Positions 1,440 to 54,457 of a stretch of 64,000 nt of DNA are shown piece by piece. The notes beneath the pieces are model-generated. The model was not told where the DNA came from. It worked only from the letters and a program-made list of their open reading frames with translations, and searched no databases. The DNA is taken from the NCBI RefSeq assembly GCF_964213995.1, contig NC_135834.1, positions 17,298,001-17,362,000 on the forward strand, given 5' to 3'. The translations under genes were made by a program, and so were the position numbers. The stretch's first letter is position 1. Each line of letters begins with the position of its first letter. The stretch is from Mustelus asterias. Taxonomy: Eukaryota.

Positions 1440-1477
1440 CAGGACATCACTGCAGGAGTGTCCAGAGACAGTTTTTT

Positions 1478-8759: not shown

Positions 8760-9092
8760 TCATAGATTAGATCATAGATCATTGATCCCCTAAAGTGCAG
8801 AAGGAGGCCATTCGGCCCATCGAGTCTGCACCGACCACATTTCCACCCAGGCCCTATTCCCGTAACCCCACATATTTACCCGACTAATGCCCCGAAGACT
8901 AGGGTCAATTTAGCATGGCTAATCAACCTGACCCGCACATCTTTGGACTGTGGGAGGAAACCGGAGCACCCAGAGGAAACCCATGTAGACACGGGGAGAA
9001 CGTGCAAACTCCGCACAGACAGTGACCCGAGGCCGGAATTCAACCCGGGACGCTGGTGTGTTGAGGCAGTAGTGCTTACCACTGTGCCACCG
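8760..9092 (-). mobile_element. HE1-like SINE with CR1-derived tail (duplicate at 19370-19701)
   Basis: Same head; tail ...GATGGGCCGAATGGCCTCCTTCTGCACT followed by (TCTATGA)n. Confidence 0.8.
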
Positions 9093-9587
9093 TTCTCGAA
9101 ATTAAAAATAAACACACAACAGGAGTTCAATCATCGTAGAGGCCCAGCTGAGGATCATGGTGCCACAGATATGACTCCAACTTGAGGATATTCACTTATA
9201 AATGTGCAGGGCTCATACATGCTTCACCAGCACCTTCCCAAAGATGGGAATTCACCATTGACTGCCAATACGTCAGCCAGGCCATCTCTGCTGTGGGACG
9301 TCCTCTTAAATCGCCGCATTTAAGGCTGAAAGATCAATATTTTGCGCTGAAATGACTAGTCATTGAAAGGGAGATTCAGGTGACGGATCCAGTTTCAGCA
9401 TTGCAGGCAGTGAGTCCAGCACAGATTTTCTCACCTATTCTGCTATAGCAATCCAGCTTTTCACGTCTTGTGTAGAATATTTCCCCAAGAAACCCCTCTG
9501 ACCACTGACAACTTGTAACAACACATCATGGGACCCACCAGTAAGCCTGGACGTACCATTACTTCAGCCGTGTGTTAGGTTGTTTGT

Positions 9588-11752: not shown

Positions 11753-11767
11753 CAATTATTCTCTATT

Positions 11768-14700: not shown

Positions 14701-17700
14701 TAATTTATTGTTAATGATTAATACAGTGGTGATATTAAAATGTAACTGGGCCCTTCCATTGATTTTTGGCGTTCCACTTTGGAGCCGTGGCAGCTCCAAA
14801 AAAATAAAGGCAATCCAGTACATGAAAACAAAAACTTCAGTGAGGCGCAGGTGCATTTATATGTTTGTGACAATAACTTAATTAATGAAAAGTTTCAAAC
14901 CGACTAATCATCTCCCTGAAGTCTGCAATCGTGTATAAACATGAACATTTTTTGGGGCGTTACAGAACACACTCAGTGCCTCTAGTCGAAATGCACGGGG
15001 TACCACAAGGTCTGGTGTTTGCCATTTACTATCCCATCATTGCAGCTATTGGAGTACCTGGTAAGCTATTCAAGTTAGTTAGTTAGTAGGTGTGTCAGTC
15101 ATCTTTACACTGCGTTAATTCTACCATATAGCAGTCGCTCTTATCCACGGTACAGATTGTCTTTTCTAATGTACTGAGATATATTTCTACAATTCACTGA
15201 TGTCATGTCTTTTCTTCAACCGCTATAATTCCTCCTCATTTTCACCATCTTTAGCGCAACACTTTTAGTGTATGTATTCATAACTTGAATATTATGATTA
15301 CTTTCCTTTCTAACATAGTATTCTGGCATAAATTATAGAATTTTCGAGAAATTTCCATTGTTACCAGCATATCTTTTTCGTATCAGCCGACACTATGTGT
15401 CCTCTTTAACAATATTGTGCTTCTTTGTGACCAGTTACATCTATTTCTGTTAATTGTATTGTTGTTTTCCCGTCTTACAGTGTAAATCCATTGTGATGCT
15501 GTTACTGGGGTAAATTCATAGACTGTGATCAGGATGGAAATTAAATTTCATTGCGTTGTTCACAAAACTATTGTGTGCAGATAACAAACAAATGTTATTG
15601 TGGTGTAAATATAGTTATATGATGGCATCAACATTCTTCTTGCAAATAAATTCTCACATTTTTGATGCAATGCCATGGCGTACTATGGCCATTGTTGTTG
15701 CGGGTGACTCCAATTGCGATCACGGTGTATCTGTAGATTCCGTATACCATTAGCTTTGACAGTGACGAAATAATACCCACCAAGGATTTAGTTTATTGAA
15801 GGACAGAGAATTTAATAATTTTTGACTGAATTATTTTCGTAAATTTATTGAAGGGACTTAATTAAGCCCCAATGTGTTTGCACATATAACAGATACATTT
15901 TACTTGAGCTCCAATGGATGAATTTTGTTTGCCTCTCAATCACAGAGCGCAGTGTTTATGGTCTCAGTCGCTCACACTCAATGATTCAGCCTGGCATATC
16001 TCTTCAATATTAACTGATCCTGATGTGTCCAAGTTGACGACTGCTGATACCAGATTGCCTTCTGCTCACACTTGGCAATGTCTGTGACTGATTGACAGAT
16101 ATATTACGTTCTCCACATTGTATGAGACATCTCAAATGTTGTAAAAACTTGGATTCAAGGTAGCATAATTGTTTTTCAATTCAAATATCCAATATATGAA
16201 AAATTTAGTTTTTTACCCCAAAAGCCGAGTGGAGCAACGAATAGGTCTTACATTGCTGAAGGGTCATTCACCTAATGGAACCTCATCATTTCCCATTTCC
16301 AATGGCCTGGAATGACACCAAAGATCGCAATGCATTTCCTTGGGAAGTTGAAAGATTTAGCTCTACATCCCAAACATGTGTTCCACAAAGTCGGGAAACG
16401 CAACACATCAATTCTCATCCCTCCCTTGCAGATTGTTGTTGACCAAGTTGACTGTTGACATTCACACCAGTGAATGATTTCACATTAGTTACTTGAAATC
16501 AATCACTTCTAATACTAAGTGCATCATAATCCGTTGTTACTTTCGTTTCCACACTTATTGTTCGCAGTTTTGCTGCACAGATGCTTATAAATGCTCCGTT
16601 TTCCGTTATTGTTCTGCTGATGTGATATACAACTTTGCATTCGAGTTTGTTGTGTTTTCGATTTCTTCTTTCACTCTTTTATGTTTCCTTGGAATATTTG
16701 ACGATAACATGATATTGTAAATCCTTATTTGTAATGTACCCCACAGTGCTCAAACTTGGAAATAATAATCCTGAGAGTAAAGCATGACTTCCACTTTATT
16801 CTGACGTGTCAAACTCTCAGATTCCTGTGTTGAACGTTTTATTCAGCCCAGACTCACAATGGTCTCCCTCTCTTTCTATTATAGCGAACATGGCAGTGAT
16901 TGTGATCCTGTCGCGAAGGACATGTGGTCTGTCCAGATGTATAACATACTACCTGGTGTCCATGGCGGCGACAGATCTCTTGGTTGTGGTGACGGTTGTC
17001 ATATTAAACCGGATCGCTGGGATTTATTTTCCAAACAGTTTCCTGTCCATCACACCAGTATGTGGTGTTCGTGCTTCCTTAAACTTTGCAGCCATTGACA
17101 GCTCTGCCTGGTTAACTGTCGCTTTTACATTTGATCGATTTGTGGCCATTTCTTGTCAGAAGTTGAAAATAAAATATTGCACTGAGAAGGTGGCAGCACG
17201 GGTTATAGGAATTGTATGCGCACTGTCCTGCATGAAGAATATATCCACATATTTTGTTTATAAACCTATATACATAATCAATAATGTACCATGGTTTTGT
17301 GGTGTAAAAGATATATATTACACATCACCGGCTTGGGCCGCATATGATTGGATTCGATCCATTTTAACCCCCTGTCTCCCATTCATTCTGATTTTGCTGC
17401 TAAATGCTCTGACTGTCAGAAACATTGTAGCGGCCAACAGAGCCCGCAGGAGACTCCGGATCCAGAACAATGGCGAGAATCAGAGTGACCCAGAAATGGA
17501 GAAGCGGAAAAAATCCATTGTTTTACTCTTTGCCATCTCCGGAAGCTTCATCCTGTTATATCTTCTGTTCTGCGTATCCATCCTCTATGTCCGAATTGCA
17601 GAACTTACTTATTCCACAGGTTCCGATTTCAGTAATGCGACATTTGTTCTCCAGCAGAGCGGATATATGCTTCAGTTACTGAGTTCCTGCATCAACCCTT

Positions 17701-20187
17701 TCATTTATGCAGGGACCCAGAGTAAGATCAGAGAGGAGTTAAAGAATGGAGTGAAATATCCATTTAACATAATTGTTAAAATACTTTCTTGAATTAAATA
17801 GGCCAATCCAACATGATCCGATATTCTTACTTTCATATCCATGTCGAGTATAAGATTGGTTAATAAACGTTGCATTCCGCATTAGTTAGCTTTGTAATGT
17901 TTACTAGTTATTTCCCAGTTCTGTATCCTGTCGCTCGCTGAGCCTTTGAGCATTCTGATCCCTCATTCTCCAACTGATCCTCCTCTTCGCCTCCATCTAT
18001 TTCCCTCCTTCTCTTCCCTTCCTCTTTTTGTCTTCGGCTCCTGTTCCGCTTCTGTTCCTTTACACTTTCACCTTCACTCCTCTTCTATTCTTCCCACCTA
18101 TTTCTCCTCGTCGCATTCTCTTGTAATATGAGCACGTCGCTGACAACGGCAGCATTCGTTTCCCATCGTCGCTTGCCATTATTGAGAGAGAGGTGGTTTG
18201 ATTTAGACCATAAGACCATAAGACATAGGAGCGGAAGTAAGGCCATTCGGCCCATCGAGTCCACTCCACCATTCAATCATGATATGATTTGATTTATTAT
18301 TATCACATGTATTAGTATCCAGTGAAAATATTGTTTCTTCCGCGCTGTACAGGCACAGCATACCGTTCATAGTGAAGGAAACGAGAGAGTGCAGAATGCA
18401 GTGTTACAGTCATAGCTCGTGGGCCGGAAAGATCAACTTAATGCAAAGTCGGTCCATTCAAAAGTCTGATGGCAGCAGGGAAAAAGCTCTTCTTGAGTCG
18501 GTTGGTCGGTGACCTCAGACTTTTGTATCTTTTTCCCGACGGAAGAAGGTAGAGGAGAGAATTTCCGGGGTGCATGGTCCTTAATTATACTGGAGCCGGT
18601 GTAGTGAAATCCCTCGCTCTCGAAGTGCAGCGCCGGCTGGTGTTTATGGACTAGCTGGACACCAACATCGTTCCACGATGCGCAAACTCTAATGCGGTCT
18701 GTCAAATGTTCAAACTCATGCCGCGGCGACATCTGGTAAATGCAGCTTTGCTGCTACAGATCCATGTCAGCCTTCAGAAGCTGAGAAATACCTGGCAATC
18801 TTGCCATCTTCTGCTTATGTGTCGACGTATCTGCCACAGCTTCCGTGAACTGACACGAATGGATTTGACCCCGGATTAAACCAATGTCAGTAACCACTAA
18901 CTTCGCTGTATTCGAGTTTCGAGGTGGTGTGTGTTCTGGAAACTATTTGATTGCTGCATTGAAAGTCAATTTCTCTGCCGCATTTGGAAGGCTACTGCGC
19001 CGGTCCAGCATTTGGCTGCATTTCTTAATGTCCTTTCATAGAGATAGAGGTGTAATGTGTTGGCGGCATGTTCACTTGACTACTCATTTGGTGTTCCATA
19101 TGAATTCTGGTGCGCAAGTGAAGAGTATATTTTTAGCTACACAACGGGAGCTTGCCCCTTTATGGCCTCTCTTTCAGTATTTGGAGCTTTGAACCCGCCC
19201 AACCATTCGTAATGACGTGCCCTGTCTCTTTGCCACCCGACTCAAACGTCTCTCTATTCACGCGCTGCAGGACGTCCATGCAGAACATCTCCAATCCGGT
19301 GCTCGGCCTGTCTCTGCGTTAAATCTCTCCTTTTCACCGGGAATTCCTCAATTTCCAGCAGTTATAAATCATAGATTAGATCATAGATCATTGATCCCCT
19401 AAAGTGCAGAAGGAGGCCTTTCGGCCCATCGAGTCTGCACCGACCACATTTCCACCCAGGCCCTATTCCCGTAACCCCACATATTTACCCTACTAATCCC
19501 CCTAAGACTCGGGTCAATTTAGCATGGCTAATCAGCCTGACCCGCACATCTTTGGACTGTGGGAGGAAACCGGAGCACCCAGAGAAAACCCACGTCGACA
19601 CGGGGAGAACGTGCAAACGCCACACAGACAGTGACCCGAGGCCGGAATTCAACCCGGGACGCTGGTGTGGTGAGGCAGTAGTGCTTACCACTGTGCCACC
19701 GTTCTCGAAATTAAAAATAAACACACAAGAGTTCAATGATCGTAGAGGCCCAGCTGAGGATCATGGTGCCACAGATATGACTCCAACTTGAGGATATTCA
19801 CTTATGAATGTGCAGGGCTCATACATGCTTCACCAGCGCCTTCCCAAAGAGGGCAATACAACTTTGACTGCCAATACGTCAGCCAGGCCAACTCTCTGTG
19901 GGACGTCCTCTTAAATCACCGCATTTAAGGCTAAAAGATCAATATTTTGCGCTGAAATGACCAGTCATTGAAAGGGAGATTCAGGTGACGGATCCAGTTT
20001 CAGCATTGCAGGCAGTGAGTCCAGCACAGATTTTCTGACCTACTCTGCTATAACAATCCAGCTTTTCACGTCTTGTGTCGAATATTTCCCCAAGAAACCC
20101 CTCTGACCGCTGACAACTTGGAACAACACATCATGGGTCACACCAGTCAGCCTGGACGTACCATTACTTCAGCCGTGTGTTAGGTTG
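11768..20187 (+). repeat. Segmental tandem duplication, copy 2
   Basis: Begins with agtaaagtaac and ends with gccgtgtgttaggttg, matching the ends of copy 1. Confidence 0.93.
14991..17792 (+). CDS. Intact two-exon class A GPCR, GPR139/GPR142-like; exon 1 14991-15060, exon 2 16885-17792, 325 aa
   Basis: Exon 1 encodes MHGVPQGLVFAIYYPIIAAIGVP plus one G, followed by a GTAAGC donor. The acceptor ttctattatag|CG at 16885 restores frame (70+908=978 nt). Seven hydrophobic segments with AATDLL (TM2), FTFDRFVAI (DRY-like) and INPFIY (NPxxY). The ORF-track start at 16806 is intronic. Confidence 0.88.
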
Positions 20188-20479
20188 CTCGTCCTCTCTG
20201 CTGTTTAGGCATTACTCTTTTTGAAACTAATCCTGATTGCAATTTCATTGTGACAGCAGACATGCGCTCAGCGCTACGGTCCTCGCCCACATTGCCTAAA
20301 TTTCATGACATGTCAGCCCTTGATTAAAAGTGCTTGAAGAATCAATTAGTAACTGCAATGCCGCTGCCAGGCCACAAAGTTTAGTTTCGGCCAATGGGGC
20401 ATGAGCAATGGGGAAAATCCTGGTCCAATTTCATTTCCAACGCCCACTCAAAAGAGCGCTGGTGTAATCTGAGTTGTTC

Positions 20480-23420
20480 GTTAGTTAATCTCTGAGATTA
20501 GGATCACGCACCTCCTGGGTCTGCTGAAAAACTGGTGTGTTAATATCGGGGTGAGGGCATTTGCTTATCCAGAGTTGTATCGAGGAATTGCCCCAGTCCT
20601 CCAACCGGCGAACGCACAAGCAAATCTACACAGATGGGAAGGTTGGAGCGACTGCTGTTCTATCCCCAATGTCTCTAAGTAGGAAAATACTCAAACGGGG
20701 AATTAGAAGAGCAAAAAGGGGTCACGAAATGTTCTTGGCAGACAGGATTAAGGAGAATCCCAAGGCATTTTATTCATACGTTAGGAACAAAAGGGTTGTT
20801 AGGGAAAGAATTGGACCTCTCAGGGACAAAAGTGGGGACTTATGCTTGGAGCCCAAAGAAGGAGGGGAGATCCTAAATGAATACTTTGCGTCGGTATTCA
20901 CAAAGGAGAGGGATGTGTTGACTGGGAGTGTCTCGGAGGGGAGTGTTGAACCGTTGGATAAAATCTCCATTACAAAGGAGGAGGTGTTAGGTTTGTTAGA
21001 GAATATAAAGACTGACAAATCCCCAGGGCCTGATGGAATCTATCCAAGGCTGCTCAGGGAGACGAGAGGTGAAATCGTTGGGCCTCTGACGCAAATCTTT
21101 GTCTCGTCACTGGACACAGGTGAGGTCCCAGAGGATTGGAGGATAGCCAATGTGGTCCCGTTATTTAAGAAGGGTAGGAAGGATAACCCGGGTAATTATA
21201 GGCCGGTGAGCTTGACGTCCGTGGTGGGGAAGTTGTTGGAGAAGGTTCTGAGAGATAGGATGTATGCGCATTTAGAAAGGAATAAACTCATTAACGATAG
21301 TCAGCATGGTTTTGTGAGAGGGAGGTCATGCCTCACTAACCTGGTGGTGTTTTTTGAAGAAGTGACCAAAATGGTTGACGAAGGAAGGGCCGTGGATGTT
21401 GTCTGTATGGACTTTAGTAAAGCGTTTGACAAAGTCCCTCATGGTAGGCTAGTGAAAAAGGTTGGATCCCATGGGATAAAGGGGGAGGTGGCTAGATGGG
21501 TGGAGAACTGGCTTGGTCATAGTAGACAGAGGGTGGTAGTGGAAGGGTCTTTTTCCGGCTGGAGGCCTGTGACTAGTGGTGTACCGCAGGGCTCTGTATT
21601 GCGACCTCTGCTGTTTGTGATTTATATAAATGATCTGGAAGAAGGAGTAACTGGGGTGATCAGTAAGTGTGCGGACGACACAAAACTGGCAGGACTTGCA
21701 GATAGTGAGGAACATTGTCAGAGGCTACAGAAGGATATAGATAGGCTGGACATTTGGGCAAAGAAATGGCAGATGGAGTTCAATTCTGATAAATGCGAAG
21801 TGATGCATTTTGGTGGGAATAATGTAGGGAGGAGCTACACGATAAATGGAAGAACCATAAAGGGTGTAGAGACGCAGAGGGACCTGGGTGTGCAAGTCCA
21901 CAGATCTTTGAAGGTGACGTCACAGGTGGAGAAGGTGGTGAAGAAGGCATATGGCATGCTTGCCTTTATAGGACGGGGCATAGAGTATAAGAGTTGGGGT
22001 CTCATGTTGCAGATGTATAGAACGTTGGTTCGGCCGCAATTGGAATACTGCGTCCAGTTCTGGTCGCCACATTACCAGAAGGACGTGGAGGCTTTGGAGA
22101 GAGTACAGAGGAGGTTTACCAGGATGTTGCCTGGTATGGAGGGGCTTGGTTATGAGGAGAGATTGGGGAAACTGGGGTTGTTCTCCCTGGAAAGACGGAG
22201 GATGAGGGGAGACTTAATAGAGGTGTATAAAATTATGAAAGGCATAGATAGGGTGAACGGTGGGAAGCTTTTCCCCGGGTCGGTGGTGACGTTCACGAGG
22301 GGTCATAGGTTCAAGGTGAAGGGGGGGAGGTTTAACACAGATATCAGAAGGACATATTTCACACAGAGGGTCGTGGGGGCCTGGAATGTGTTGCCGGGCA
22401 AGGTGGTGGAGGCGGACACACTGGGAACGTTTAAGACTTATCTAGACAGCTATATGAACGGAGTGGGAACGGAGGGATACAAAAGAGTGGTCTAGTCTGG
22501 ACCAGGGAGCGGCGCGGGCTAATTGTTCCTTGTTTCTCGTTTCAAGGCTTCATTCTATGATCATCTTGCTGGTGCCAGTACAGAGCGAGACTGCGGATAG
22601 TTGGGAACCTGTCTCGGGGGCCGGGAATTCATATGGTGTACGTGGAAGTGGAAATGACTAGGGTTGGGAAGCATTTCCCGATCAGGGCCATTGTGATCTC
22701 CTGGACTCGTTTCGATCGCCTCAGGGGGTCGGAGAGGAATTTCCCAGATTTTATTTCCCCATATTGGCCCTGGGGTTTTTCACTCTGGGTTTTCGCCTCT
22801 CCCTGGAGATCACATAGTCTGGAATGGGGGGGTGGGGGTGAGTTAATAGGTTGTAGTGAACAAAGCATCGTAGCTGTGAGGGACAGCTCGGTGGATAGGA
22901 TATTGGTATGTAGATAGGCTGGAAAATTGGGCGGGGATCCTGGATTCAGGATTCAATCCTGGACCGGGGAGCGGCGCGGGCTTGGAGGGCCGAAGGGCCT
23001 GTTCCTGTGCTGTAATTGTTCTTTGTTTGTTCTTTGTCTCTAAGTGAGCATCCAAAACGTCCACATCCTGATTCACCCACAACTCCACAACAATCATTCT
23101 CCTGCTCCAACGGGTTACATCGTATGTTTCTCATTTCGGTGACAGAGCCACAAGGAGTAGAGGCCATTCACCTGTATGGCTTGCAGTCAGGTTTGTCATT
23201 TTGCTTAACCCTGCCCTTGGATCGTGCGATCCAGTTGATGATCGGTAACACACCTGCCTGATTTATGCGTGAAGTTGAAACACGCTGCAGGAAAAAGGCA
23301 TTCACCTGCTCGAGTTCTCTACACGGCTGCTCGTTATACCTGTTGAAATAAAAACATATCCACACCATAGGCAGACCATTCACCTGTTCCGTCTGTGGTA
23401 GGGGCATTCACCCACTCCGT
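20480..23420 (+). pseudogene. Decayed C2H2 zinc-finger array, split by the CR1 at 20681-23034
   Basis: CIEELPQSSNRRTHKQIYTDGK at about 20576-20641; HKE*RPFTCMAC at about 23149; KAFTCS at about 23295; HIHTIGRPFTCSVCGRG at about 23354-23405. All resemble the HTGERPFTCxxCGK linker and finger. Confidence 0.6.
20681..23034 (+). mobile_element. 5'-truncated CR1 LINE with RT, long 3' UTR and 11-bp TSD
   Basis: RT motifs (DFSKAFDKV, PQGSVL, xADDTK), (TTGTTCT)n-like tail, and TGTCTCTAAGT at both 20670-20680 and 23035-23045. Confidence 0.93.
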
Positions 23421-30091: not shown

Positions 30092-31616
30092 CCGAGAATT
30101 CTGGAAAGATTTACCAGGATCCATGTTTCACTAAATGCTTGAAGCGGATAAAGCGGTAAACACGACGGGGACTCAATATCTTTAACCGTTTGCATAAAGA
30201 CGCAGACACAGGTGGATTATTGTCTCTGATCTCTGAAGGGTGGATAGCTTCACATTAACATCCAGAATATTTAATGTCAGTTTTAAGGCAATAACGAATG
30301 AAGGATAGGGAAGATAGATACAAACTGAGGGTCTACATAAATGGTTAGTGCAAAGTAAATGAATTAATTGCAAAATAAATTTAGTATAGTTGGTTGAGAA
30401 AAGTGGCACATTCAAATGTTTAAGACAGTGGAGAGAAAAAGAAAACGGTCTCTGAGCTCAGAAACATGTTAATGTTTCAGACAGATCTGACTAAGACCAA
30501 GGAATCAAGGTCAATATCGCCTTATGGCTGGATCCACACAACGTTTGCATGAAAATTTGGCAACTTGGCAACATTTCGACATCTGATTGATGCGTACAAA
30601 TTATTTGAAGGAGATTCATTGTATGATTTCACTGGGACCAGATAAGCTGCTTTCACAGTACTGACGTTGTCACTATTGTTCCTTCCGTGTTGTGCCCATT
30701 CTATTCCATAACAACATTCCCAGAATAATTTCCATTTGCTCATTTGAAATTCAGGGTTTTATCTTAACGTTATGGCATTCGCGAGGACACTTTGCCTCAT
30801 TTATTTCGAGCTTGTTTATCTTTAACCCCAAGGCAGTGAAGCACGAATGCTACCTCCATTAAAGATTGAAGCTGTGAGAAATGGTGGATTTTAATCACAG
30901 AGGTGCCATTCCCTTGAGTGGCAACGGGGGAGGTGGAGCCGTGGAGTCGTGGAGATGTGACAGGCCCTAGACTAAGAACGGGAGCGGGATGATTGGAGTA
31001 TACGGGGTCGCTCTGATACCTCTGCGAAGCAGTACCCTCAACAAATTCTAAACTTATTTCCATCTTTCGTGGACGTAACAATGGTTAGGTTTCCCACTGT
31101 TTTCTAAAACCAGCTGATGATTCTGTGTGTATAACACCATGTTAAGAAGAAAAACACGAAAATGTCGATAATCGTTCCCCACAACGAGTAGGAATCTATA
31201 CACAGCCCATCAGTTTTACGATAGAAGTGTTAAGAAATCAGAATATTTCCAAGAACCGTAAAGCACACATATAATTCTGCTAAAGGTGATGAATATCGAT
31301 ACTGGCATTTTAAACATTTCCAGTTAAATACAGTTTAGTCAATCGAACTCCATTCGTTTTCAAAATACAGTTACAATTCGCATGCTTAGAAATAAGCAAT
31401 CATCAGCGCCTTGGTAACACCGTGGAACATTCTGACTTTGTTGTTGCAACAAAAAAATCAAAAGCAAATCAAAAGTTTACAATGTCACTAATACCCATCA
31501 GGGAAGAAGAAATTCCTCGTCAGTCTGATGCGACTCATCAAATCTGCCGAGATTACCGCTATGCTTCACTTTAAATTTGAACTCCGGTGTTATTGCTTTG
31601 AACAAACAAACAGTCC

Positions 31617-31948
31617 TTAGAGACCACAAGTCTCCAAGCTGATGGATGTGTGGACCAGCGTGTCCTGAGACTTGTATCTGAAAAGACACGAGTAATGTTC
31701 ATTCGAGTTCCATGCCCCGATAGGAAGATTCAAGTAGCTGCTCACGCTGTCGCTGTTGTCGCTCTCAAGATGAGGTAGGTTTGCATACACTCCGCTCTGT
31801 GTCTCACTCCCCCGCACTTTCCACAGGATGACCCCGAAAGCTGGATAGAAGCCGCGGATCAGACAGCTCAGCGTCACTGTTTCAGCTGAAGTCACTTCTT
31901 GGCGTGAAGGCGGAAACAATTCCAGTGATGGCGCCTGCCGTTGACGGT
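31617..31948 (-). pseudogene. Ig light-chain-type constant (C1-set) exon
   Basis: APSLELFPPSRQEV...TLSCLIRGFYP...W...SVSSYL...WNSNEHYSC...SISLETCGL*. C1-set Cys-Trp-Cys pattern, a near-terminal Cys as used for the H-L disulfide, and a stop with no TM segment. The expected phase-1 acceptor reads ttacAC rather than AG. Confidence 0.85.
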
Positions 31949-32150
31949 GTGTAACAGCCTGTACCTGGATGTCAGTAAAGCTCATTCTAGAATGCGTCAT
32001 CACAATAACATAACGTTATGGTTATCACAGAAACAGAAGACGATGAAACACAAAATGTAGTTGCCATCAGTACTTCCCGCCAGCTTTTCAAACATTTATT
32101 GATCTTTCCTCACAGAACTGTCCTTTCCCATTCGCTGCATAATGTTTTCT

Positions 32151-33117
32151 CCCACTGCTGTTTGTAATATTTATTAATGATCTGGATGAGGGTCTCGTTG
32201 GGTGGATTAGCAAATTTGCTGATGACACCAAAGTCGGTGGTGTGGTAGACAGTGAGGAAGGGTGTCGTAGTTTGCAGGAAGACTTAGACAGGTTGCAAAG
32301 TTGGGCCGAGAGGTGGCGGATGGAGTTTAATGCGGAGAAGTGTGAGGTAATTCACTTTGGTAGGAATAACAGATGTGTTGAGTATAGGGCTAACGGGAGG
32401 ACTTTGAATAGTGTGGAGGAGCAGAGGGATCTAGGTGTATGTGTGCATAGATCCCTGAAAGTTGGGAATCAAGTAGATAAGGTTGTTAAGAAGGCATATG
32501 GTGTCTTGGCGTTTATTGGTAGGGGGATTGAATTTAGGAGTCGTAGCGTTATGTTGCAACTGTACACAACTCTGGTGCGGCCGCACTTGGAGTACTGTGT
32601 GCAGTTCTGGTCCCCACATTACAGGAAGGATGTGGAGGCTTTGGAGAGGGTGCAGAGGAGGTTTACCAGGATGTTGCCTGGTATGGAGGGGAGATCCTAT
32701 GAGGAGAGGCTGAGGGATTTGGGATTGTTTTCGCTGGAAAGGCGGCGGCTAAGAGGGGATCTTATTGAAACATATAAGATGATTAGAGGTTTAGATAGGG
32801 TGGATAGTGATAGCCTTTTTCCTCTGATGGAGAAATCCAGCACGAGGGGGCATGGCTTTAAATTGAGGGGGGGTAGTTATAGAACCGATGTCAGGGGTAG
32901 GTTCTTTACCCAGAGGGTGGTGAGGGATTGGAATGCCCTGCCAGCATCAGTTGTAAATGCGCCTAGTTTGGGGGCGTTTAAGAGATCCGTAGATAGGTTC
33001 ATGGACGAAAAGAAATTGGTTTAGGTTGGAGGGTCACAGTTTTTTTTTTAACTGGTCGGTGCAACATCGTGGGCCGAAGGGCCTGTTCTGCGCTGTAATG
33101 TTCTATGTTCTATGTTC
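32151..33117 (+). mobile_element. CR1 LINE 3' fragment in the J-C intron
   Basis: KFADDTK at the 5' end, ORF 32242-33024, (GTTCTAT)n tail. Confidence 0.9.
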
Positions 33118-34314
33118 AAACATATATCCATCCCCATTTGAAAACTGGTAATGAATCGGCTTCTACTGTCCTCATAGTCAGTGCACTCCACGTCATAACA
33201 ACTCGTTGCATCAAGTATCTCCTCAAGACTGCTGTTTCTTTTTTCAGTGAACATAAACATTTCTTGTGTGATAACAAACTTTTCTCTCGGTGGTAATTGT
33301 ATTTGCCTTATCTACGCTATGAGTCATTTACACTCTAAAAATGGGCAATGAATTGACTTGTGAGGCTGGAACTAGAATTTCATATTAGTTTTTACAGCCA
33401 GGTCCCAAACCCACAAACCTCTGCCTCCACCGCTACAGAGCTACCACTGAGCCATAGCTGTGACAACAGAAATGATACCGAGTTGGAATGTAACAGCTCA
33501 CTAGATAGACATTGATATGACACTCGTTATTCCAGTAGAATAATATAACTGAATTGCAGAATTCACTCCCTGCCCCGTACTATCGTGAAATTTGTAATAT
33601 AATTAGCCCTCGTTTATTTTTGTAGATACTGATTGATAGCGTTGAGTGCTTCCTTATCTCTGATAAACACGATCCGCATTTTGATTTAATATTTTACCAC
33701 GGAGGTCTATGTGTTCACTTTACTTATGCCCAAAATATGGCGCCAAAATGTAGGTCTGCAAAGCCAATAAAAATCGAAAATTCAAATCCTTAGACTTGCT
33801 GAAAAATGGCCGGATCTTCTCGGCCGTTCACGCCGACAGAGTTCTCTCGTCCCGTTGCAGGGACCGGAGATTTGGCTAAGCACCAAATTCTCCATCCTCG
33901 TTTGCAGAGGCGGCCAGGTGTGAACGGCTGGAAAATGTCTGTTCCATAATGCTTAATTTCGAACATTTTCTTGGTATTCAGATGTTCAAATATACAGGTT
34001 GCCAATAAATGAAATAAATTCTGTCAATGTTTGATTTCAAATAACTGCATTTGCTCAGAATTCAAGATTCTATTGCTTCAATCGTTTTCGCTATGTTTGG
34101 TTCGCTTTGAATTGAAATCAGTGCGTTAATTCTGGAACAGACAGTCGTTGAATGTACTGTGAAGTATTGGTTATAAATCCTGTACCCACATACAGTAAAT
34201 ACCCGCTCACACTGCTGCCAGCAGGCTCCAGAGCAAAAACTTGCATCATTTACTGAGCATAATTTAACGACGATTTGTAGAGCGATTGTTGCATGATGGA
34301 TCTCTCAAACGTTA

Positions 34315-34402
34315 AGGTCTTCAAAGTTTTGGTTGGAGGTCTTCAAAGTTTTGGTTGGAGGTCTTCAAAGTTTTGGTTGGAGGTCTTCAAAGTTTTGGTT
34401 GG
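34315..34402 (+). repeat. 22-bp tandem repeat x4 at the LINE 5' junction
   Basis: AGGTCTTCAAAGTTTTGGTTGG repeated exactly four times. Confidence 0.9.
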
Positions 34403-37113
34403 GGAACATGTGGCAAATAGTGACCACAATTCTGTTAGCTTTAGGATAGTGGTGGAAAAGGATGAGTGGTGTCCCAAGGGTAAGGTGTTGGATTGAGGGA
34501 AGGCTAACTTTATTGGGATCAGGCAGAAATTGGCAGCTCTTGATTGGGAGAGGCTGTTTGAGGGTAAATCCACATCTGGTATGTGGCAGTCTTTTAAGGA
34601 ACGGTTGTTAGGGCTACAGGACAAGCATGTGCCTGTAAAAAAGAAGGATAGGAAGGGTAGGATTAGAGAGCCGTGGATAACCAGGGAAATTGAGGGACTG
34701 GTCAAAAAGAAAAGAGAGGCGTATGTTAGGTCCAAGCAGCTAAAAACGGAGGGAGCTCTGGAGGAGTACAATGAAAGTAGGAAAGTACTCAAACGGGGAA
34801 TTAGAAGAGCAAAAAGGGGTCACGAAATGTTCTTGGCAGACAGGATTAAGGAGAATCCCAAGGCATTTTATTCATACGTTAGGAACAAAAGGGTTGTCAG
34901 AGAAATAATCGGACCTCTCAGGGACAAAAGTGGGGACTTATGCTTGGAGCCCAAAGAAGTAGGGGAGATCCTAAATGAATACTTTGCGTCGGTATTCACA
35001 AAGGAGAGGAATGTGTTGACTGGGAGTGTCTCTGAGGGGAGTGTTGAACCGTTGGAGAAAATCTCCATTACAAAGGAGGAAGTGTTAGGTTTGTTAGAGA
35101 ATATAAAGACTGACAAATCCCCAGGGCCTGATGGAATCTATCCAAGGCTGCTCAGGGAGACGAGAGGTGAAATCGTTGGGCCTCTGACGCAAATCTTTGT
35201 CTCGTCACTGGACGCAGGTGAGGTCCCAGAGGATTGGAGGATAGCCAATGTGGTCCCGTTATTTAAGAAGGGTAGGAAGGATAACCCGGGTAATTATACG
35301 CCGGTGAGCTTGACGTCCGTGGTGGGGAAGTTGTTGGAGAAGATTCTTAGAGATAGGATGTATGCGCATTTAGAAAGGAATAAACTCATTAACGATAGTC
35401 AGCATGGTTTTGTGAGAGGGAGGTCATGCCTCACTAACCTGGTGGTGTTTTTTGAAGAAGTGACCAAAATGGTTGACGAAGGAAGGGCCGTGGATGTTGT
35501 CTATATGGACTTTAGTAAAGCGTTTGACAAAGTCCCTCATGGTAGGCTGGTGAAAAAGGTTGGATCCCATGGGATAAAGGGGGAGGTGGCTAGATGGGTG
35601 GAGAACTGGCTTGGTCATAGAAGACAGAGGGTGGTAGTGGAAGGGTCTTTTTCCGGCTGGAGGCCTGTGACTAGTGGTGTACCGCAGGGCTCTGTATTGG
35701 GACCTCTGCTGTTTGTGATTTATATAAATGATCTGGAAGAAGGAGTAACTGGGGTGATCAGTAAGTTTGCGGACGACACAAAACTGGCAGGACTTGCAGA
35801 TAGTGAGGAACATTGTCAGAGGCTACAGAAGGATATAGATAGGCTGGAAATTTGGGCAAGGAAATGGCAGATGGAGTTCAATCCTGATAAATGCGAAGTG
35901 ATGCATTTTGTTGGGAATAATGTAGGGAGGAGCTACACGATAAATGGAAGAACCATAAAGGGTGTAGAGACGCCGAGGGACCTGGGTGTGCAAGTCCACA
36001 GATCTTTGAAGGTGACGTCACAGGTGGAGAAGGTGGTGAAGAACGCATATGGCATGCTTGCCTTTATAGGACGGGGCATAGAGTATAAGAGTTGGGGTCT
36101 GATGTTGCAGATGTATAGAACGTTGGTTCGGCCGCATTTGGAATACTGCGTCCCGTTCTGGTCGCCACACTACCAGAAGGACGTGGAGGCTTTGGAGAGA
36201 GTACAGAGGAGGTTTACCAGGATGTTGCCTGGTATGGAGGGGCTTGGTTATGAGGAGAGATTGGGGAAACTGGGGTTGTTCTCCTTGGAAAGACGGAGGA
36301 TGAGGGGAGACTTAATAGAGGTGTATAAAATTATGAAAGGCATAGATAGGGTGAACGGTGGGAAGCTTTTCCCCGGGTCGGTGGTGACGTTCACGAGGGG
36401 TCATAGGTTCAAGGTGAAGGGGGGGAGGTTTAACACAGATATCAGGAGGACATATTTTACACAGAGGGTCGTGGGGGCCTGGAATGTGTTGGAGGCGGAC
36501 ACACTGGGAACGTTTAAGACTTATCTAGACAGCTATATGAACGGTGTGGGAATGGAGGGATACAAAAGAGTGGTCTAGTTTGGACCAGGGAGCGGCGCGG
36601 GCTAACTATTCCTTGTTTCTCGTTTCAAGGCTTCATTCTATGATCATCTTGCTGGTGCCAGTACAGAGCGAGACTGCGGATAGTTGGGAACCTGTCTCGG
36701 GGGCAGGGAATTCATATGGTGTTCGTGGAAGTGGAAATGACTAGGGTTGGGAAGCATTTTCCCATCAGGGCCAGTGTGATCTCCTGGACTCGTTTCGATC
36801 GCCTCAGGGGGTCGGAGAGGAATTTCCCAGATTTTTTTTCCCCATATTGGCCCTGGGGTTTTCACTCTGGGTTTTCGCCTCTCCCTGGAGATCACATGGT
36901 CTGGAATGGGGGGGGTGGGGTGAGTTAATAGGTTGTGATGAACAAAGCATCGTAGCTGTGAGGGACAGCTCGGTGGATAGGATATTGGTATGTAGATAGG
37001 CTGGAAAATTGGGCGGGGATCCTGGATTCAGGATTCAATCCTGGACCGGGGAGCGGCGCGGGCTTGGAGGGCCGAAGGGCCTGCTCCTGTGCTGTATTGT
37101 TCTTTGTTCTTTG
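34315..37113 (+). mobile_element. 5'-truncated CR1 LINE in the J-C intron
   Basis: ORF 34530-36578 with KFADDTK; same 3' UTR and tail as 20681-23034. Confidence 0.93.
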
Positions 37114-37341
37114 TTAAGAAAATAAACATCCTGTGACAGCAAGCATCACTCAATGATACAATAACATTCCCGAAAAACGTGTTTCACACAGCAATATAAA
37201 TTATTTCCTCGTTATTTATTATTACTGGGCAGTGTTGTCATTATGAGGAAATAATTTACATTGCTGTGTGAAACACCTTTTTCGGGAATGTTATTGTATC
37301 ATTGAGTGATGCTTGCTGTCACAGGATGTTTATTTTCTTAA
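37114..37341. repeat. Long inverted repeat with 97-bp arms and a 34-bp spacer
   Basis: 37114-37210 is the reverse complement of 37245-37341 with two mismatches seen. Confidence 0.9.
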
Positions 37342-37352
37342 TTGATTAGCAC

Positions 37353-37636
37353 CAATAAACATTACCCAGTAATAATAAATACACAATAGAATCAATAAAC
37401 ATCACCCAGTAATAATAAATACACAATAGAATCAATAAACATCACCCAGTAATAATAAATACACAGTAGAATCAATAAACATCACCCAGTAATAATCAAT
37501 TGAGATTCGGGTCAATTAACATCGCCAAGTAATAATAAATGGAGATTAGCATCAAGAAACATCACCTAGTAATAATTAATAGAGATTATGGTCAATAAAC
37601 ATTACCTACTATCAATGAATTTATCTCAGTAATAAT
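37353..37636. repeat. 40-bp AT-rich minisatellite, about 7 copies degrading rightward
   Basis: Unit CAATAAACATCACCCAGTAATAATAAATACACAATAGAAT. Confidence 0.88.
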
Positions 37637-38032
37637 CCCCGTGGGGGTAAAAAGTCGTAACGGGTATTGACGCCAAACTAGCGGTAATGTGACTGATTAT
37701 CGGATGCTGTGTCTCAAGTGAGGCTTAACTGATAGAGTCCATTAATATAAGAACCATTGGTTCATGATCAGAAGAAGTCGAAATTGCCTGGGGTTTGTCA
37801 CAAACCTGACAATAATTCAACATGGGGCACTTGCCCCGTTGTCAGCTGAACGATCACTGAGCCTATCTTTTTTCCTCAACCGATAAAATGATAGTTGCTG
37901 AATGTTATAAAGTGTAAAAGGACATGTCAATGCTGTCATGGCGTAATTGCAAGTTATGGTCTCTTGGGTATGATAAAATTATGAAATATAAAATATGCTC
38001 TCAATACAAATAATTCCTTAGTATTGACTTAC

Positions 38033-38376
38033 CTAATACGTACAACTCTTTACCATTATAAAAAAAGACACCAGAATCATCAATCGAGCAGTAATAGACA
38101 GCCGAGTCCTTCACCTCCACTTGGTTGATGGTGAGGAAAGACTTCTTCTGCGCATCGTCGCTGAAATGGGCGAAGCGATCTGAGACATTGAGCCACTTTG
38201 CAGTGTTCCTTCAGGAGCGGTGCTTTTATGGGTCAGGATCCCCGGTGTATGCCTGAACCAGTGGAGCCATCCGTCCCAGATATCTATGTTCTTTACCGAG
38301 CAACGTAAGGTGACGGACCATCCTGGGACGCCAGAGGCAGTTTCCGGTTGGAGCAGTTCGGGAAACGGACAGACAC
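38033..38376 (-). pseudogene. Germline-joined V-J exon of an Ig light-chain-like gene, frameshifted
   Basis: Acceptor ttccaacag|GT. Reads PELLQPETASGVPGWSVTLRCSVKNIDIWDGWLHWFRHTPG, then after a frameshift near 38205-38212 NVSDRFAHFSDDAQKKSFLTINQVEVKDSAVYYCSIDDSGVFFYNGKELYVL-G|GTAAGT. Both Cys, the core Trp and DxAVYYC are present. No RSS lies between YYC and the J-like strand. Length is 344 nt, not a multiple of 3. Confidence 0.85.
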
Positions 38377-38498
38377 CTGTTGGAACGGAGTAAAAGTGAT
38401 GAGTTCAGGTCTGTGATAAAGGATGAGAACAATATAAGTGCATTCATCAATACACTTGTGAAGTTTTACTACAAATTCAGTTTAAGATTTCTACTCAC

Positions 38499-38544
38499 TG
38501 GAGAAAGATATAAACAAGAGCATCATCATATCCACCGTGACCAT
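38499..38544 (-). pseudogene. Leader (signal peptide) exon of an Ig light-chain-like gene
   Basis: ACCATGG start; MVTVDMMMLLFISFS plus 1 nt (46 bp); GTGAGT donor; 122-bp phase-1 intron to the V exon, which is the standard Ig leader layout. Confidence 0.78.
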
Positions 38545-38682
38545 GGTTACACTGAGACACGGGCACTGATTGACAAACTGTTGATGGGCCTGGGCTTCTG
38601 GCTGTCTACACAAAGGTGAGGACTAGATGTTGACTATCTATACCTTAAATCCTTATTGGTTGTTAGTAACACGTCTTCAACA

Positions 38683-38692
38683 ATGCAAATTA
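38683..38692 (-). promoter_or_regulatory. Ig light-chain-type octamer/decamer promoter element (TAATTTGCAT)
   Basis: Perfect ATTTGCAT on the gene strand about 140 bp upstream of the leader ATG. It matches the TNATTTGCAT decamer in the light-chain orientation. Confidence 0.7.
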
Positions 38693-40612
38693 TTTTGATA
38701 GGAAGAAGTCTCGATAACTGACTGACGTCCGTCGACACTTACAAACATAGATTTCTGCCGATTTAAGAAAAAAATGCAGTCCAAATTGTGAGAATCCAAC
38801 ACAGGTAATAAATATTAGGATCCCTAACCCCTCCCCCCCCCCAATCTCCCCGACCACCCCCGCCATTGCCTCCCTTGTAAATGCCCCACAATGTTTATAT
38901 TCACATGATCAACCTACTGTTCATCTAAGTTGCACTTTATGCTCTCCTATGTAAAATCAGTGAGTGTAACTTGTTAATTTGTATCGACTGCAGAGCTGGA
39001 GGAGCATGAATCCCCGGCGCTGAGGCTCCTCCAGTACAAACTCTGAACCTCCTCGTACCATAGAAGCCCTCGCCTTTAGCTGCTACAGATTGGTTTTACA
39101 AACTCGTTGTTTACTCTGTGTCCTGGAAATTGCGTTTTCTATTGTGAGATGAGCGCCTTCTCTGTTCGAGTGAAAAAATCTAAATGCCGCTCCTGTACTG
39201 TTCACATTAGCACAAAATGTTTTGGTGCAGAAACAATGCTGCTTGTGTTTGAACTAATTGTTCTCTGAACTGAGTTAACCCACCAACAATTAGAAAATGA
39301 AAAATTGAATCATTCAGTAGAGATGCCTGAGCTCCAATCTAACAGCTGAATTGTTTGTAGTTTGTAAGTTTGCCCAACTTTCCCGTCCAGAGAATTGATT
39401 CACAAAATGATACAATGCAGCAGGAATACGGTCCTGATGTATTTCTGGTGTTGGCCACTTGACATATCTTTTTAATTTACGCATTTACCTTGCTCTTTCT
39501 TTGTATACCTGCACAAGTTCCCTTCCAAGATATTTTTCGTTTAATACCACATCTGCTTCGAACAAGTTTACATGGAGTAAATTCCAGATCATAACAAACA
39601 TCCCCCCAATGGATAAAAGAACAAGAATCAGTTAGCGCACTATTTCTGAGGCCTTGACATCCACCCCTAAAGCGTAATGCCCAGAATTGACCTGAATACC
39701 ACAACTGTGATCCAACTCGTATTCTATCACGTTTTAATTTAGATTACTATTTTGTGTCAAATAAGTATTCACTTTTAAATCTTTTTTTTTCTTTTATCAG
39801 CCTTCTCAATCGTCTTTTCACCTTCAGGAATGTGTTCACTTTTACCCTCTAATCTGAAGGAAAGAAATCATTCGCTATTGCTCTCTGCTTTTTGTCCTTT
39901 TTCCGGTCTGTGTGCAGTCTGATCCCAGCTGCTTCAATTTCGAAACAAATTGAATATTTAATCTCAGTAACGATGCCTGCAGAGATGGTGTGACGATCAG
40001 GAAACATCGATTCTGTCACTAAGAGTGGAAAGTTGCGGGTACAGGTATTTTTTGTTTCGCCATCTTCTGCTTGAATTAAACACTTTGTGATAACACACAT
40101 ACATCTTCCGAAACATATTTGCAATGCAGAGTAGAATTCTTCGGTACAGCCAGCAACTGTGGTGGGGAATAATCCCTATTGTAATGTTTATTCAAACCAA
40201 GTAAATTGAAAAAAACAGGAGAACCCGGAGGGAACCCACGCAGACATGAGGAGAATGTGCAAACTCCACAAAGACAGTGACCCAAGACGGGAATTGAACC
40301 CGGGCCCCTGGCGAGGTGAGGTGCCATGTTCCCATCTAAGCAGAAGAAGTTACAGCAAAACAGCATTGTGGAGGTAAAATCATCGGGAAGGTAAAATAGT
40401 CAAAGGGGCTCATTTAGGTTTGTAAACGATGCCACAATGTGCTCTTTCGGTACAAGGTTTGGTGCAAATAGCAACAAATTGGCTTCGAATTTGCAGAGAA
40501 AACGCTGACACCCTGATTCAGGTTGCCATGCGGCATACAGTTGTGTCCGTCTTTCTGGCGCAATTGGTCAGCGCGTTCAGCTGTTCACCGGAAGGTTGGT
40601 GATTTGAAACCA

Positions 40613-47596: not shown

Positions 47597-49121
47597 ATGT
47601 GGAGATGCCGGCGTTGGACTGGGGTGAACACAGTAAGAAGTCTCACAGCACCAGGTTAAAGTCCAACAGGTTTATTTGGTAGCAAATACCATAAGCTTTC
47701 GGAGCGCTGCCCCTTCGTCAGATGGAGTGGTTATCTGTTCTCAAACAGTGCAAACAGACACAGAAATCAAATTACAGAATACTGATTAGAATGCAAATCT
47801 CTACAGCCAGCCAGGTCTTAAATGTACAGACAATGTGGGTGGAGGGAGCATTCAACACAGGTTAAAGAGATGTGTATTGTCTCCAGACAGAACAGCCAGT
47901 GAAATTCTGCAAGCCAAGGAGGCAAGCTGTGGGGGTTACTGATAATGTGACATAAATCCAACATCCCGGTTTAGGCCGTCCTCATGTGTGCGGAACTTGG
48001 CTATCAGTTTCTGCTCAGCGACTCTGCGCTGTCGTGTATCGTGAAGGCCGCCTTGGAGAACGCTTACCTGAAGATCCAAGGCTGAATGCCCGTGACTGCT
48101 GAAGTGCTCCCCCACAGGAAGAGAACAGTCTTGCCTGGTGATTGTCGAGCGGTGTTCATTCATCCGTTGTCTTAGCGTCTGCATGGTTTCCCCAATGTAC
48201 CATGCCTCAGGACATCCTTTCTTGCAGCGTATCAGGTAGACAACGTTGGCCGAGTTGCAAGAGTAGGTGCCGTGTACCTGGTAGATGGTGTTCTCACGTG
48301 AGATGATGGCATCCGTGTCGATGATCCGGCACATCTTGCAGAGGTTGCTGTGGCAGGGTTGTGTGGTGTCATGGTCACTGTTCTCCTGAAGGCTGGGTAG
48401 TTTGCTGCGGACAATGGTCTGTTTGAGGTTGCGTGGTTGTTTGAAGGCAAGAAGTGGGGGTGTGGGGATGGCCTTGGCGAGATGTTCGTCTTCATCAATG
48501 ACATGTTGAAGGCTCCGGAGGAGATGCCGTAGCTTCTCCGCTCCGGGGAAGTACTGGACGACGAAGGGTACTCTGTCCACCATGTCCCGTGTTTGTCTTC
48601 TGAGGAGGTCGGTGCGGTTTTTCGCTGTGGCGCGTCGGAACTGTTGATCGATGAGCCGAGCGCCATATCCTGTTCTTATGAGGGCATCCTTCAGCGTCTG
48701 GAGGTGTCTGTTGCGATCCTCCTCATCCGAGCAGATCCTGTGTATTCGGAGGGCTTGTCCGGAGGGGATGGCTTCTGTTACGTGTTTAGGGTGGAAACTG
48801 GAGAAGTGGAGCATCATGAGGTTATCCATGGGCTTGCGGTACAGTGAGGTGCTGAGGTGACCGTCCTTAATGGAGATGCGTGTGTCCAAGAATGCAACCG
48901 ATTCCAGAGAGTAGTCCATGGTGAGTCTGATGGTGGGATGGAGCTTGTTGATGTCATCATATAGTTGTTTCAGTGATTGCTCACCATGACTCCAAAGGAA
49001 GAAAATGTCATCGATGTATCTAGTGTATAGCATCGGTTGAAGGTCCTGTGCGGTGAAGAAGTCTTGTTCGAACCTGTGCATGAAGATGTTGGCATATTGA
49101 GGTGCGAATTTTGTCCCCATA
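47597..49121 (-). mobile_element. 5'-truncated Penelope-like element (RT C-half, GIY-YIG endonuclease, 3' terminal repeat)
   Basis: ORF 47936-49165: MGTKFAPQYAN, RYIDDIF, LYRKP, and the GIY-YIG segment VVYLIRC...WYIGET...R...EH. Confidence 0.9.
47689..47725 (-). ncRNA. Minimal type I hammerhead ribozyme motif
   Basis: CCAU-CUGACGA-A-GGGGC agc GCUCC-GAA-AGCU-U-AUGG: stem I CCAU/AUGG, intact core, stem II, palindromic stem III. Confidence 0.75.
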
Positions 49122-49315
49122 CACCATGCATACATCAGAAAGCAGGGATTTCCTCTTCGTTGCACTGAGTCTTGGGTTCTTCATCTCTCTGAGAGGTTGC
49201 CTAGTCCGCTGATATGAAGATCGGCAAAGTGTGATTTTGAGTCTGACCTTATATTCAGTTAAAATTCAACATTCAAGGTGAACTACAGAGCTTCCTTCAA
49301 ACTGATATTTAGCAA

Positions 49316-53223: not shown

Positions 53224-54457
53224 GAGCACAAGCTTTCGGAGTGTCCCTCCTTCTTCAGGTGAGTGAGGAGTTGAGTTCACAAACAGGGCATACATAGACA
53301 CAGACTCAGTTTACAAGATTTTGCTTGGAATGCGAGTCTTTACAGGTAATCAAGTCTTAAAGGTACAGGCAATGTGAGAGGAGAAAGGGTTAAGCACAGG
53401 TTAAAGAGGTGTGTATTGTCTCCAGCCAGGACAGTTAGTGAGATTTTGCAAGCCCAGGCAAGTTGTGGGGGTTACAGATAGTGTGACATGAACCCAAGAT
53501 CCCGGTTGAGGCCATCCTCATGTGTGCGGAACTTGTGTGCGACAGTTCCGACGCGCGACAGTTCCGACGCGCCACAGTGAAAAATTGCACCGACCTCCTC
53601 AGAAGACAAGCATGGAACACAGCGAAGAGTACCCTTCGTCGTCCAGTACTTCCCCGGAGCGGAGAAGCTACGACATCTTCTCCAGAGCCTTCAACATGTC
53701 ATCGATGAAGACGAACATCTCATCAAGGCCATCGCCACACCTCCACTTCTTGCCTTCAAACAACCACACAACCTCAAACAGACCATTGTCCGCAGCAAAC
53801 TACCCAGCCTTCAGGAGAACAGTGACCACGACACCACACAACCCTGCCACAGCAACCTCTGCAAGACGTGCCGGATCATTTACATGGATGCCATCATCTC
53901 ACGTGAGAACACCATCCACCAGGTACACGGTACCTACTCTTGCGACTCGACCAACGTTGTCTACCTGATATGCTGCAGGAAAGGATGCCCCAAGACATTG
54001 TACATTGGGGAGACCATGCAGATGCTACGACAACGGATGAATGAACACCGCTCGACAATCACCAGGCAGGAGTGTTCTCTTCCTGTCGGGGAACACTTCA
54101 ACATTCACGGGCATGCAGCCTCTGATCTTCGGGTTCTCCAAGGCGGCCTTCACGACAAACGGCAACGCAGAATCGCTGAGCAGAAACTGAGAGCCAAGTT
54201 CCGCACACATGAGGGCGGCCTCAAACGGGATCTTGGGTTCATGTCACACTATCTGTAACCCCCACGACTTGCCTGGGCTTGCAAAACCTCACTAACTGTC
54301 CTGGCTGGAGACAATACACATCTCTTTAACCTGTGCTTAACCCTCTCACCACTTACATTGTCTGTACCTTTAAGACTTGATTACCTGTAAAGACTCGCAT
54401 TCCAACCATCATCTTGTAAATTGAGTTTGTGTCTATATAATGCCCTATTTGTGAACA
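53224..54457. mobile_element. Penelope-like element with inverted ends (minus 53224-53535, plus about 53556-54457)
   Basis: GIY-YIG ORF 53884-54258 on the plus strand; about 53275-53535 is the diverged reverse complement of about 54195-54456. Confidence 0.85.
53227..53261 (-). ncRNA. Minimal type I hammerhead ribozyme motif
   Basis: CAC-CUGAAGA-A-GGAG ggaca CUCC-GAA-AGCU-U-GUG. Confidence 0.7.

Follow-up and report, generated by a model that had tools for sequence, protein, structure and literature searches.

A light-chain-like gene on the minus strand

The window analyzed here (the whole 64-kb stretch of Mustelus asterias contig NC_135834.1) encodes an immunoglobulin (Ig) light-chain-like gene on its minus strand, at positions 31617..38692. 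The gene organization is genuine and complete in the light-chain style: an octamer promoter within a decamer, a leader exon, a single exon in which variable (V) and joining (J) parts are already joined (VJ) without recombination signal sequences (RSS), a long intron, and a secreted-type C1-set constant (C) exon. A preliminary description of the locus had listed these elements, and all of them were located (the octamer, the 46-bp leader, the single V plus J-like exon with its GTAAGT donor, the intron of about 6.1 kb, and the secreted C1 exon ending in CGL*). The general features expected of a light chain are thus present: leader, V-set and one C1-set domain, terminal cysteine and octamer promoter, and no transmembrane segment before the stop of the C exon. 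No further convincing Ig exon was identified in the window by tblastn with the collected relative proteins. A weak V-like tblastn match at 57225-57422 was judged by eye to be the start of an open reading frame 1 (ORF1) of a long interspersed nuclear element (LINE), and hence a chance match.

The decamer TAATTTGCAT (38683..38692, minus strand) contains the octamer ATTTGCAT (38690-38683) and lies 139 bp upstream of the ATG at 38544; the octamer is in the orientation typical of light-chain promoters. The TNATTTGCAT decamer occurs once in the whole 64-kb window and 1.06 occurrences are expected by chance, so its value as evidence lies in where it stands relative to the ATG and in its orientation. 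Two more ATTTGCAT octamers, at 41542 and 47798 (minus strand), have neither decamer context nor an Ig exon nearby and are probably there by chance. The leader exon (38499..38544, minus strand, 46 bp; MVTVDMMMLLFISFS plus one base) ends in a phase-1 donor, A/GTGAGT. Up to the split codon, it equals in length the leader of P0002, a Chiloscyllium punctatum protein described below. A leader intron of 122 bp follows (38377..38498, minus strand; acceptor CAACAG).

The joined VJ exon (38033..38376, minus strand, 344 bp) comprises V and a J-like G strand and ends in G/GTAAGT. Its 3' half matches the Pfam V-set domain with an E-value of 1.1e-5 and its 5' half with 0.019. The FGxG motif reads FYNG, and alignment to P0002 gives complementarity-determining region (CDR) lengths of 8, 10 and 8 residues for CDR1, CDR2 and CDR3, with CDR2 free of gaps. 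The absence of a heptamer and nonamer between V and J, as previously claimed, held up: RSS scans were at chance level, with no match inside the gene. With a 12-nt spacer there was none in or near the VJ exon (one three-mismatch match at 39887-39914 versus 0.84 expected), and with a 23-nt spacer there were 0 matches. The C1-set exon (31617..31948, minus strand) is an open frame ending in ETCGL* (Pfam C1-set, E 6.5e-14).

The window copy is dead, and no intact protein can be made from it in this genome. The preliminary description presented a gene with a complete layout; the architecture stands, but the description overlooked that the copy is broken (stop at 38113, 16 nt missing, AC acceptor). 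There is no open spliced reading frame, given an early stop, a short V exon and no phase-compatible C-exon acceptor at the homologous position. The VJ exon has 344 nt versus the 360 predicted from the Chiloscyllium protein and is thus 16 nt short. A 15-nt loss near 38240 in framework region 2 (FR2) removes five residues (MTPEW) present in P0002, and a 1-nt frameshift near 38190 leads to a premature TGA (38111..38113, minus strand) that is reached in the leader frame, 78 nt upstream of the donor. A stop at this distance from a donor is a likely target of nonsense-mediated decay. At the other end of the intron, the start of the C exon was placed at 31948 by homology (P0002: I-D-W-K-L-Q); the dinucleotide just before it (31950-31949), at the acceptor position of the Chiloscyllium exon, is AC. 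The donor is in phase 1, and between 31930 and 32020 none of the five AGs is in the phase that it needs. Rescue by a cryptic acceptor was rejected: AGs upstream do not have the required phase, and phase-compatible AGs inside the exon cost at least 17 codons. Also rejected was the RefSeq model P0001 as the true product, as its N-terminus lies in another frame of the V exon and it skips the B-C strands; the model is patched around the lesions.

An origin of the lesions in assembly errors is unlikely and was largely rejected using contigs from a second sample (X3) and from another organism (organism B). The X3 contig spans the frameshift without differences. An X1 contig matches the whole V region and possibly shares its source with the window DNA; it alone covers the 15-nt loss, which is thus without independent cover. 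The promoter and leader are intact and the C frame is free of stops, which suggests that the loss of function is not very old.

Organism B is ~3% diverged from the window. There, the acceptor site is unchanged in the X4 contig, and 21 nt around it are deleted in the X5 contig. The C exon differs at 11 of 329 positions, and its flanks at 9 of 295 and 5 of 152. Seven of the 11 C-exon changes are non-synonymous (pN/pS 0.53, p 0.30 versus neutrality). Divergence of the C exon at the rate of its flanks, although based on few changes, fits a pseudogene in both organisms. For the V region, X5 yielded no contig and X9 only a short, unlike piece, which is no proof of absence. The X4 contig (depth 3.3, corresponding to window positions 31322-32100) terminates at 31322 with 21 A's, 12 nt beyond an ATTAAA, and continues unspliced into the intron. 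Accordingly, a likely poly(A) signal and site can be placed from this single contig at 31322..31339 (minus strand), where the window has ACTAAA and organism B ATTAAA. The same contig may hint at a polyadenylated, intron-retaining transcript of the dead gene in organism B.

Relatives and phylogenetic placement

The C domain of the window is 100% identical to that of the M. asterias model P0001 (XP_078057136.1). The only other close relative found is P0002 from the bamboo shark Chiloscyllium punctatum. This protein (GCC38681.1 / XP_072406873.1), seen on two contigs, is predicted as an intact leader-VJ-C chain of 245 residues. These two proteins were the only close relatives among 141 candidates found with the window C domain and among 125 found with P0002. 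In a search of all 50% representatives nothing else exceeded 42% among the best 150 of 4,332 matches, and in a metagenome scan for P0002 none of 67 pattern matches was confirmed. We take the window gene and P0002 to form one lineage, which we label X. The two are 56% identical in V and 62% in C, and other within-lineage pairs of Mustelus and carpet sharks have V/C values of 53/58, 60/58 and 61/64. The leader, CDR1, CDR2 and CDR3 have equal lengths in both, and both have the J-like strand and a CDR3 of 8. Because of this within-lineage level of identity and the equal leader and CDR lengths, the window gene and P0002 can be read as orthologs whose join would predate their split.

Comparison with known isotypes places lineage X at a distance from all of them. 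In V/C, P0002 shares 45/39% identity with horn-shark sigma-2, 39/33% with a ray sigma chain and 40/41% with a shark lambda. As a yardstick, identity between isotypes is 41/44% for sigma-2 versus sigma and 41/42% for sigma-2 versus lambda. By this measure, the distance between lineage X and any of the known shark light-chain types is similar to that separating those types, and so is at isotype level. CDR lengths are reported to be 8 (CDR1) and an invariant 7 (CDR2) in sigma-2, 9-10 (CDR2) in sigma, 5-7 (CDR1) and 2-3 (CDR2) in lambda-2, and 3 (CDR2) in kappa (PMC5985310; here and below, papers are cited for the excerpts that were accessible). Lineage X, with a CDR1 of 8 and a CDR2 of 10, has the CDR1 length of sigma-2 and falls outside the lengths of lambda-2 and kappa.

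With sigma-2 (also sigma-cart, NS5 or type I; P0154) lineage X shares the leader-V(J)-C cluster, the CDR1 of 8, a sigma-2-like C motif (F.PG[FY]V; F.PGFV in common) and the terminal cysteine, and joined members of sigma-2 are known. Unlike sigma-2, to which the intact lineage X chain is 45% identical in V and 39% in C, lineage X has a CDR2 of 10 rather than 7, an FR1 one residue shorter, and no split member seen. IgL sigma (P0073 of Hemitrygon and P0125 of Polypterus, labelled on the basis of motifs and CDRs) resembles lineage X in its CDR2 of 9-10 and its FR2 and FR3 motifs, but has a CDR1 of 6, a different C motif and a C identity of 30-33%. Coelacanth, gar and turtles have joined sigma-2 genes (PMC5985310) that are also similar in form, being germline-joined and secreted V-C chains with a CDR1 mostly of 8. 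However, the presumed joined sigma-2 chains P0156, P0095, P0055 and P0082, which were not matched to the genes of that paper, are 29-40% identical and form separate clades. A great white shark 'IgL sigmaprime' gene near PSMB5 (PMC12227049, Table S1) could not be matched to lineage X or to the following lineage.

A profile search (14 matches among 7,907 candidates) identified a second joined-looking sigma-2-like lineage, here lineage Y. It comprises P0031, P0168-P0173 and P0175 from eight shark species and coelacanth P0161, a probable ortholog (83-94% bootstrap), and carries the database label 'lambda-1 light chain-like'. Like lineage X, lineage Y has a joined-looking VJ-C structure, a constant CDR3 length (9 residues in 7 of 7 tested) and the same FR1 length. 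It differs in its CDR2 of 7 and in its identity to P0002 (V 34-44%, C 32-37%). Mustelus has an intact-looking lineage Y gene of its own (P0168), so lineage X is a paralog of lineage Y. As a canonical sigma-2-type model (P0108) is present in Mustelus as well, lineage X would be the third sigma-2-like paralog in one species. Also encountered were skate and carpet-shark proteins built of tandem VJ-type domains (P0030, P0144, P0015, P0164 and P0166); the two that were included in the V tree cluster with sigma-2 V (92/82).

Trees were built from 46 V rows (4 of 50 dropped), 42 C rows (2 of 44 dropped) and V+C sets of 30, 37 and 36 rows, from which P0175 was excluded because most of its C domain is absent. 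Sigma-2 alone is anchored by a database name (WKK30312.1, 'Igsigma-2', P0154). The window gene and P0002 form their own clade in the V (93/99), C (100/99) and V+C (100/100, 30 rows) trees. A tree in which lineage X is constrained to fall among the three canonical sigma-2 rows from sharks is 42 log units worse and is rejected by the approximately unbiased (AU) test (p-AU 1.2e-7). Lambda and kappa form a clade without lineage X (100/98), which places it outside lambda (shark type II), whose genes are all joined.

The maximum likelihood tree has lineage X at the base of a broad sigma-2-like group that consists of sigma-2, lineage Y, and coelacanth, lungfish, caecilian and turtle chains (71/79; 491 of 1000 bootstrap trees). 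This group is monophyletic with lineage X in 643 of 1000 bootstrap trees versus 91 of 1000 without it. When the pseudogene is left out, lineage X stands beside lineage Y plus the coelacanth chain (695/1000 and 693/1000), with group support of 64/49 and 87/95. In the 37-row set, 721 of 1000 bootstrap trees unite lineage X with all joined-looking lineages in a clade that excludes canonical sigma-2. Thus, the trees weakly favor the broad sigma-2-like group (64-87% bootstrap), and lineage X likely belongs there.

The preliminary description had recognized a germline-joined VJ-C light-chain-like gene that recalls sigma-cart/type I yet is divergent, and this agrees with identities of 39-45% and with sigma-2 as the nearest isotype overall. 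It had also named high-identity nesting of V and C inside a described isotype as the outcome that would make this an ordinary dead cluster; at 39-45% identity, and with nesting rejected as above, this is not what was found. The V and C trees that it called for do resolve a separate clade outside canonical sigma-2. The deeper place of this clade is not fixed by them, as several sister positions are not rejected.

Intron insertions and the rest of the window

The VJ-C intron (31949..38032, minus strand; donor G/GTAAGT, homologous acceptor AC) is 6,084 bp long. It contains a young LINE on the plus strand (34343..37108, 5' limit approximate) with a reverse transcriptase (RT) ORF at 34497-36578; the part at 34775-37108 is 97% identical to 20677-23027. 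A second, truncated LINE RT piece lies at 32143..33024 (plus strand; RT motifs recognized by eye).

Elsewhere, the window encodes three copies of a rhodopsin-family seven-transmembrane G protein-coupled receptor (Pfam 7tm_1) on the plus strand (6275-7260, 16788-17792 and 56159-57071). The copy at 16788-17792 is a single open frame of 334 codons, and the other two are interrupted. Two of the copies lie in a tandem segmental duplication (1280-9589 and 11765-20194, 95-97% identity). Also present are two inverted Penelope-like retroelement pieces (47936-49180, minus strand, and 53510-54457, plus strand) that are 87% alike, with a weak GIY-YIG match (E 3e-4).

Origin of the join and its significance

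We consider it probable that the window holds a pseudogenized, germline-joined VJ-C light-chain gene of the deep lineage X, likely sigma-2-like, that was joined by RAG in an early shark ancestor. Several points weigh against this reading. Sister relationships of lineage X with canonical sigma-2 (p-AU 0.22 and 0.39), sigma (0.27 and 0.31), lineage Y (0.43), lambda/kappa (0.11) and a UrIg-like protein (0.33) are not rejected by the AU test, and neither is a position of lineage X beyond all light chains (0.39). The trees are without shark kappa, lambda-2, T-cell receptor (TCR) C and PRARP/VJC1 sequences, their kappa-type rows are from teleosts only, and they include two sigma rows. The labels sigma, lambda, kappa, Ig heavy chain (IgH), TCR and UrIg-like were assigned from motifs that we presume to be diagnostic. 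The CDR2 of 10 residues is a length of sigma (9-10) and not of sigma-2 (7). For P0002, which comes from gene prediction, the joined state is deduced from the protein and not from its DNA, and expression is presumed. In the databases searched, lineage X occurs in two species only, with one copy dead, and a pN/pS of 0.53 on 11 changes leaves room for some past selection.

Some of these points would suit a secondarily joined isotype that does not belong to the sigma-2-like group and is, for instance, sister to sigma or intermediate between sigma and sigma-2. The CDR2 of 10, the distance of ~40% to all isotypes, and two motifs (PG.TP.WIL and NVEL.D.AVYYC) that lineage X has in common with the ray sigma-type P0073 agree with such an origin. 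Moreover, lineage X falls below the split of the sigma-2-like group from lambda/kappa in ~195 of 1000 bootstrap trees (143 + 52). Its union with sigma, although not rejected by the AU test, appears in just 11 and 8 of 1000 bootstrap trees, its C domain has FYPGF rather than the LSV motif of sigma, and its CDR1 has 8 residues versus 6. We therefore regard this origin as unlikely. We give less weight still to the view that lineage X arose as a joined copy of canonical shark sigma-2 (NS5/type I) that evolved fast and branches just below the known members, which would make the locus an ordinary dead cluster. Sigma-2 does give P0002 its top V identity (44-45%), a sister relationship is not rejected, and joined and pseudogene sigma-2 loci are described in PMC5192425. 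However, nesting is rejected, lineage X joins sigma-2 in 0 of 1000 bootstrap trees (37-row set), its CDR2 departs from the invariant 7 (PMC5985310), and its identity is at the level found between isotypes.

The preliminary description had further raised the prospect of a never-split gene relevant to antigen-receptor origins, that is, a relic of a VJ-C1 precursor like UrIg or PRARP. Like UrIg/UrIg2 and PRARP/VJC1, lineage X has a single VJ exon without an RSS remnant, followed by a C1-set domain. It is basal to all light chains in 52 and 34 of 1000 bootstrap trees, and clades with IgH and with the UrIg-like protein are not rejected. But a missing RSS does not discriminate a never-split gene from a joined one, because a germline join leaves no RSS (PMC2193156). 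Lineage X has the octamer promoter, length, fold and terminal cysteine of a light chain, and most bootstrap trees put it in a group with RSS-split members. UrIg2 has a V domain and three C domains and forms homodimers (PMC12227049; the three C domains also in the title of PDB 9dmx), whereas lineage X has a single C domain ending in a stop, and the UrIg-like protein shares less identity with it (V 32%, C1 37%). A never-split relic is thus very improbable, and the proposed bearing on receptor origins finds no support here.

A germline join by RAG is the most likely route to the structure of lineage X, because split members of its probable group occur in horn and nurse sharks and because no RSS remains after such a join. 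Germline RAG activity would have joined V and J in an early shark ancestor. In the intact form, the octamer promoter would drive B-cell transcription without rearrangement, and splicing of leader, VJ and C would give a secreted-type chain of ~229 residues with a fixed 8-residue CDR3. By analogy, the terminal cysteine would bond to a heavy chain, providing an invariant antibody partner, probably early in life. The AlphaFold model of P0002 has a predicted local distance difference test (pLDDT) score of 91, Foldseek ranks Fab chains 212-220 residues long highest (many of them with the label L), and the best Atlas structure match is a light-chain cluster (TM 0.73). In nurse shark, light chains are reported to have been joined by RAG in the germ line and to be expressed in neonates (PMC2193156), and a joined sigma-2 is the partner of IgM1gj (PMC4279169, PMC5192425).

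A wider proposal is that lineages X and Y and the joined coelacanth, lungfish, caecilian and turtle chains all descend from one fixed VJ-C gene that predates the split of sharks and bony fish, with lineage X as an additional shark isotype. We regard this as doubtful, although the clade of joined-looking lineages in the 37-row set (721 of 1000 trees) agrees with it. If true, invariant light chains independent of RAG would constitute a family that spans the jawed vertebrates and is sister to the rearranging sigma-2 of sharks.

Four light-chain isotypes are counted in cartilaginous fish (PMC4279169, PMC5192425, PMC12227049). At least two further deep sigma-2-like shark lineages, X and Y, appear to lie under the generic label 'lambda-1 light chain-like'. 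Lineage X is likely an overlooked lineage of fixed light chains; no description of it was found in the literature searched, but key papers fall outside that search, so its absence from print is not established. The dead state of the window copy limits its own direct importance, and the intact bamboo-shark gene makes the idea of an old join testable. The nurse-shark kappa joins are recent (0-7 Myr for R4; PMC2193156), and a join retained across carpet and ground sharks would, if true, be far older. In that case, a germline join could found a lasting invariant receptor chain, as PMC2193156 proposed.

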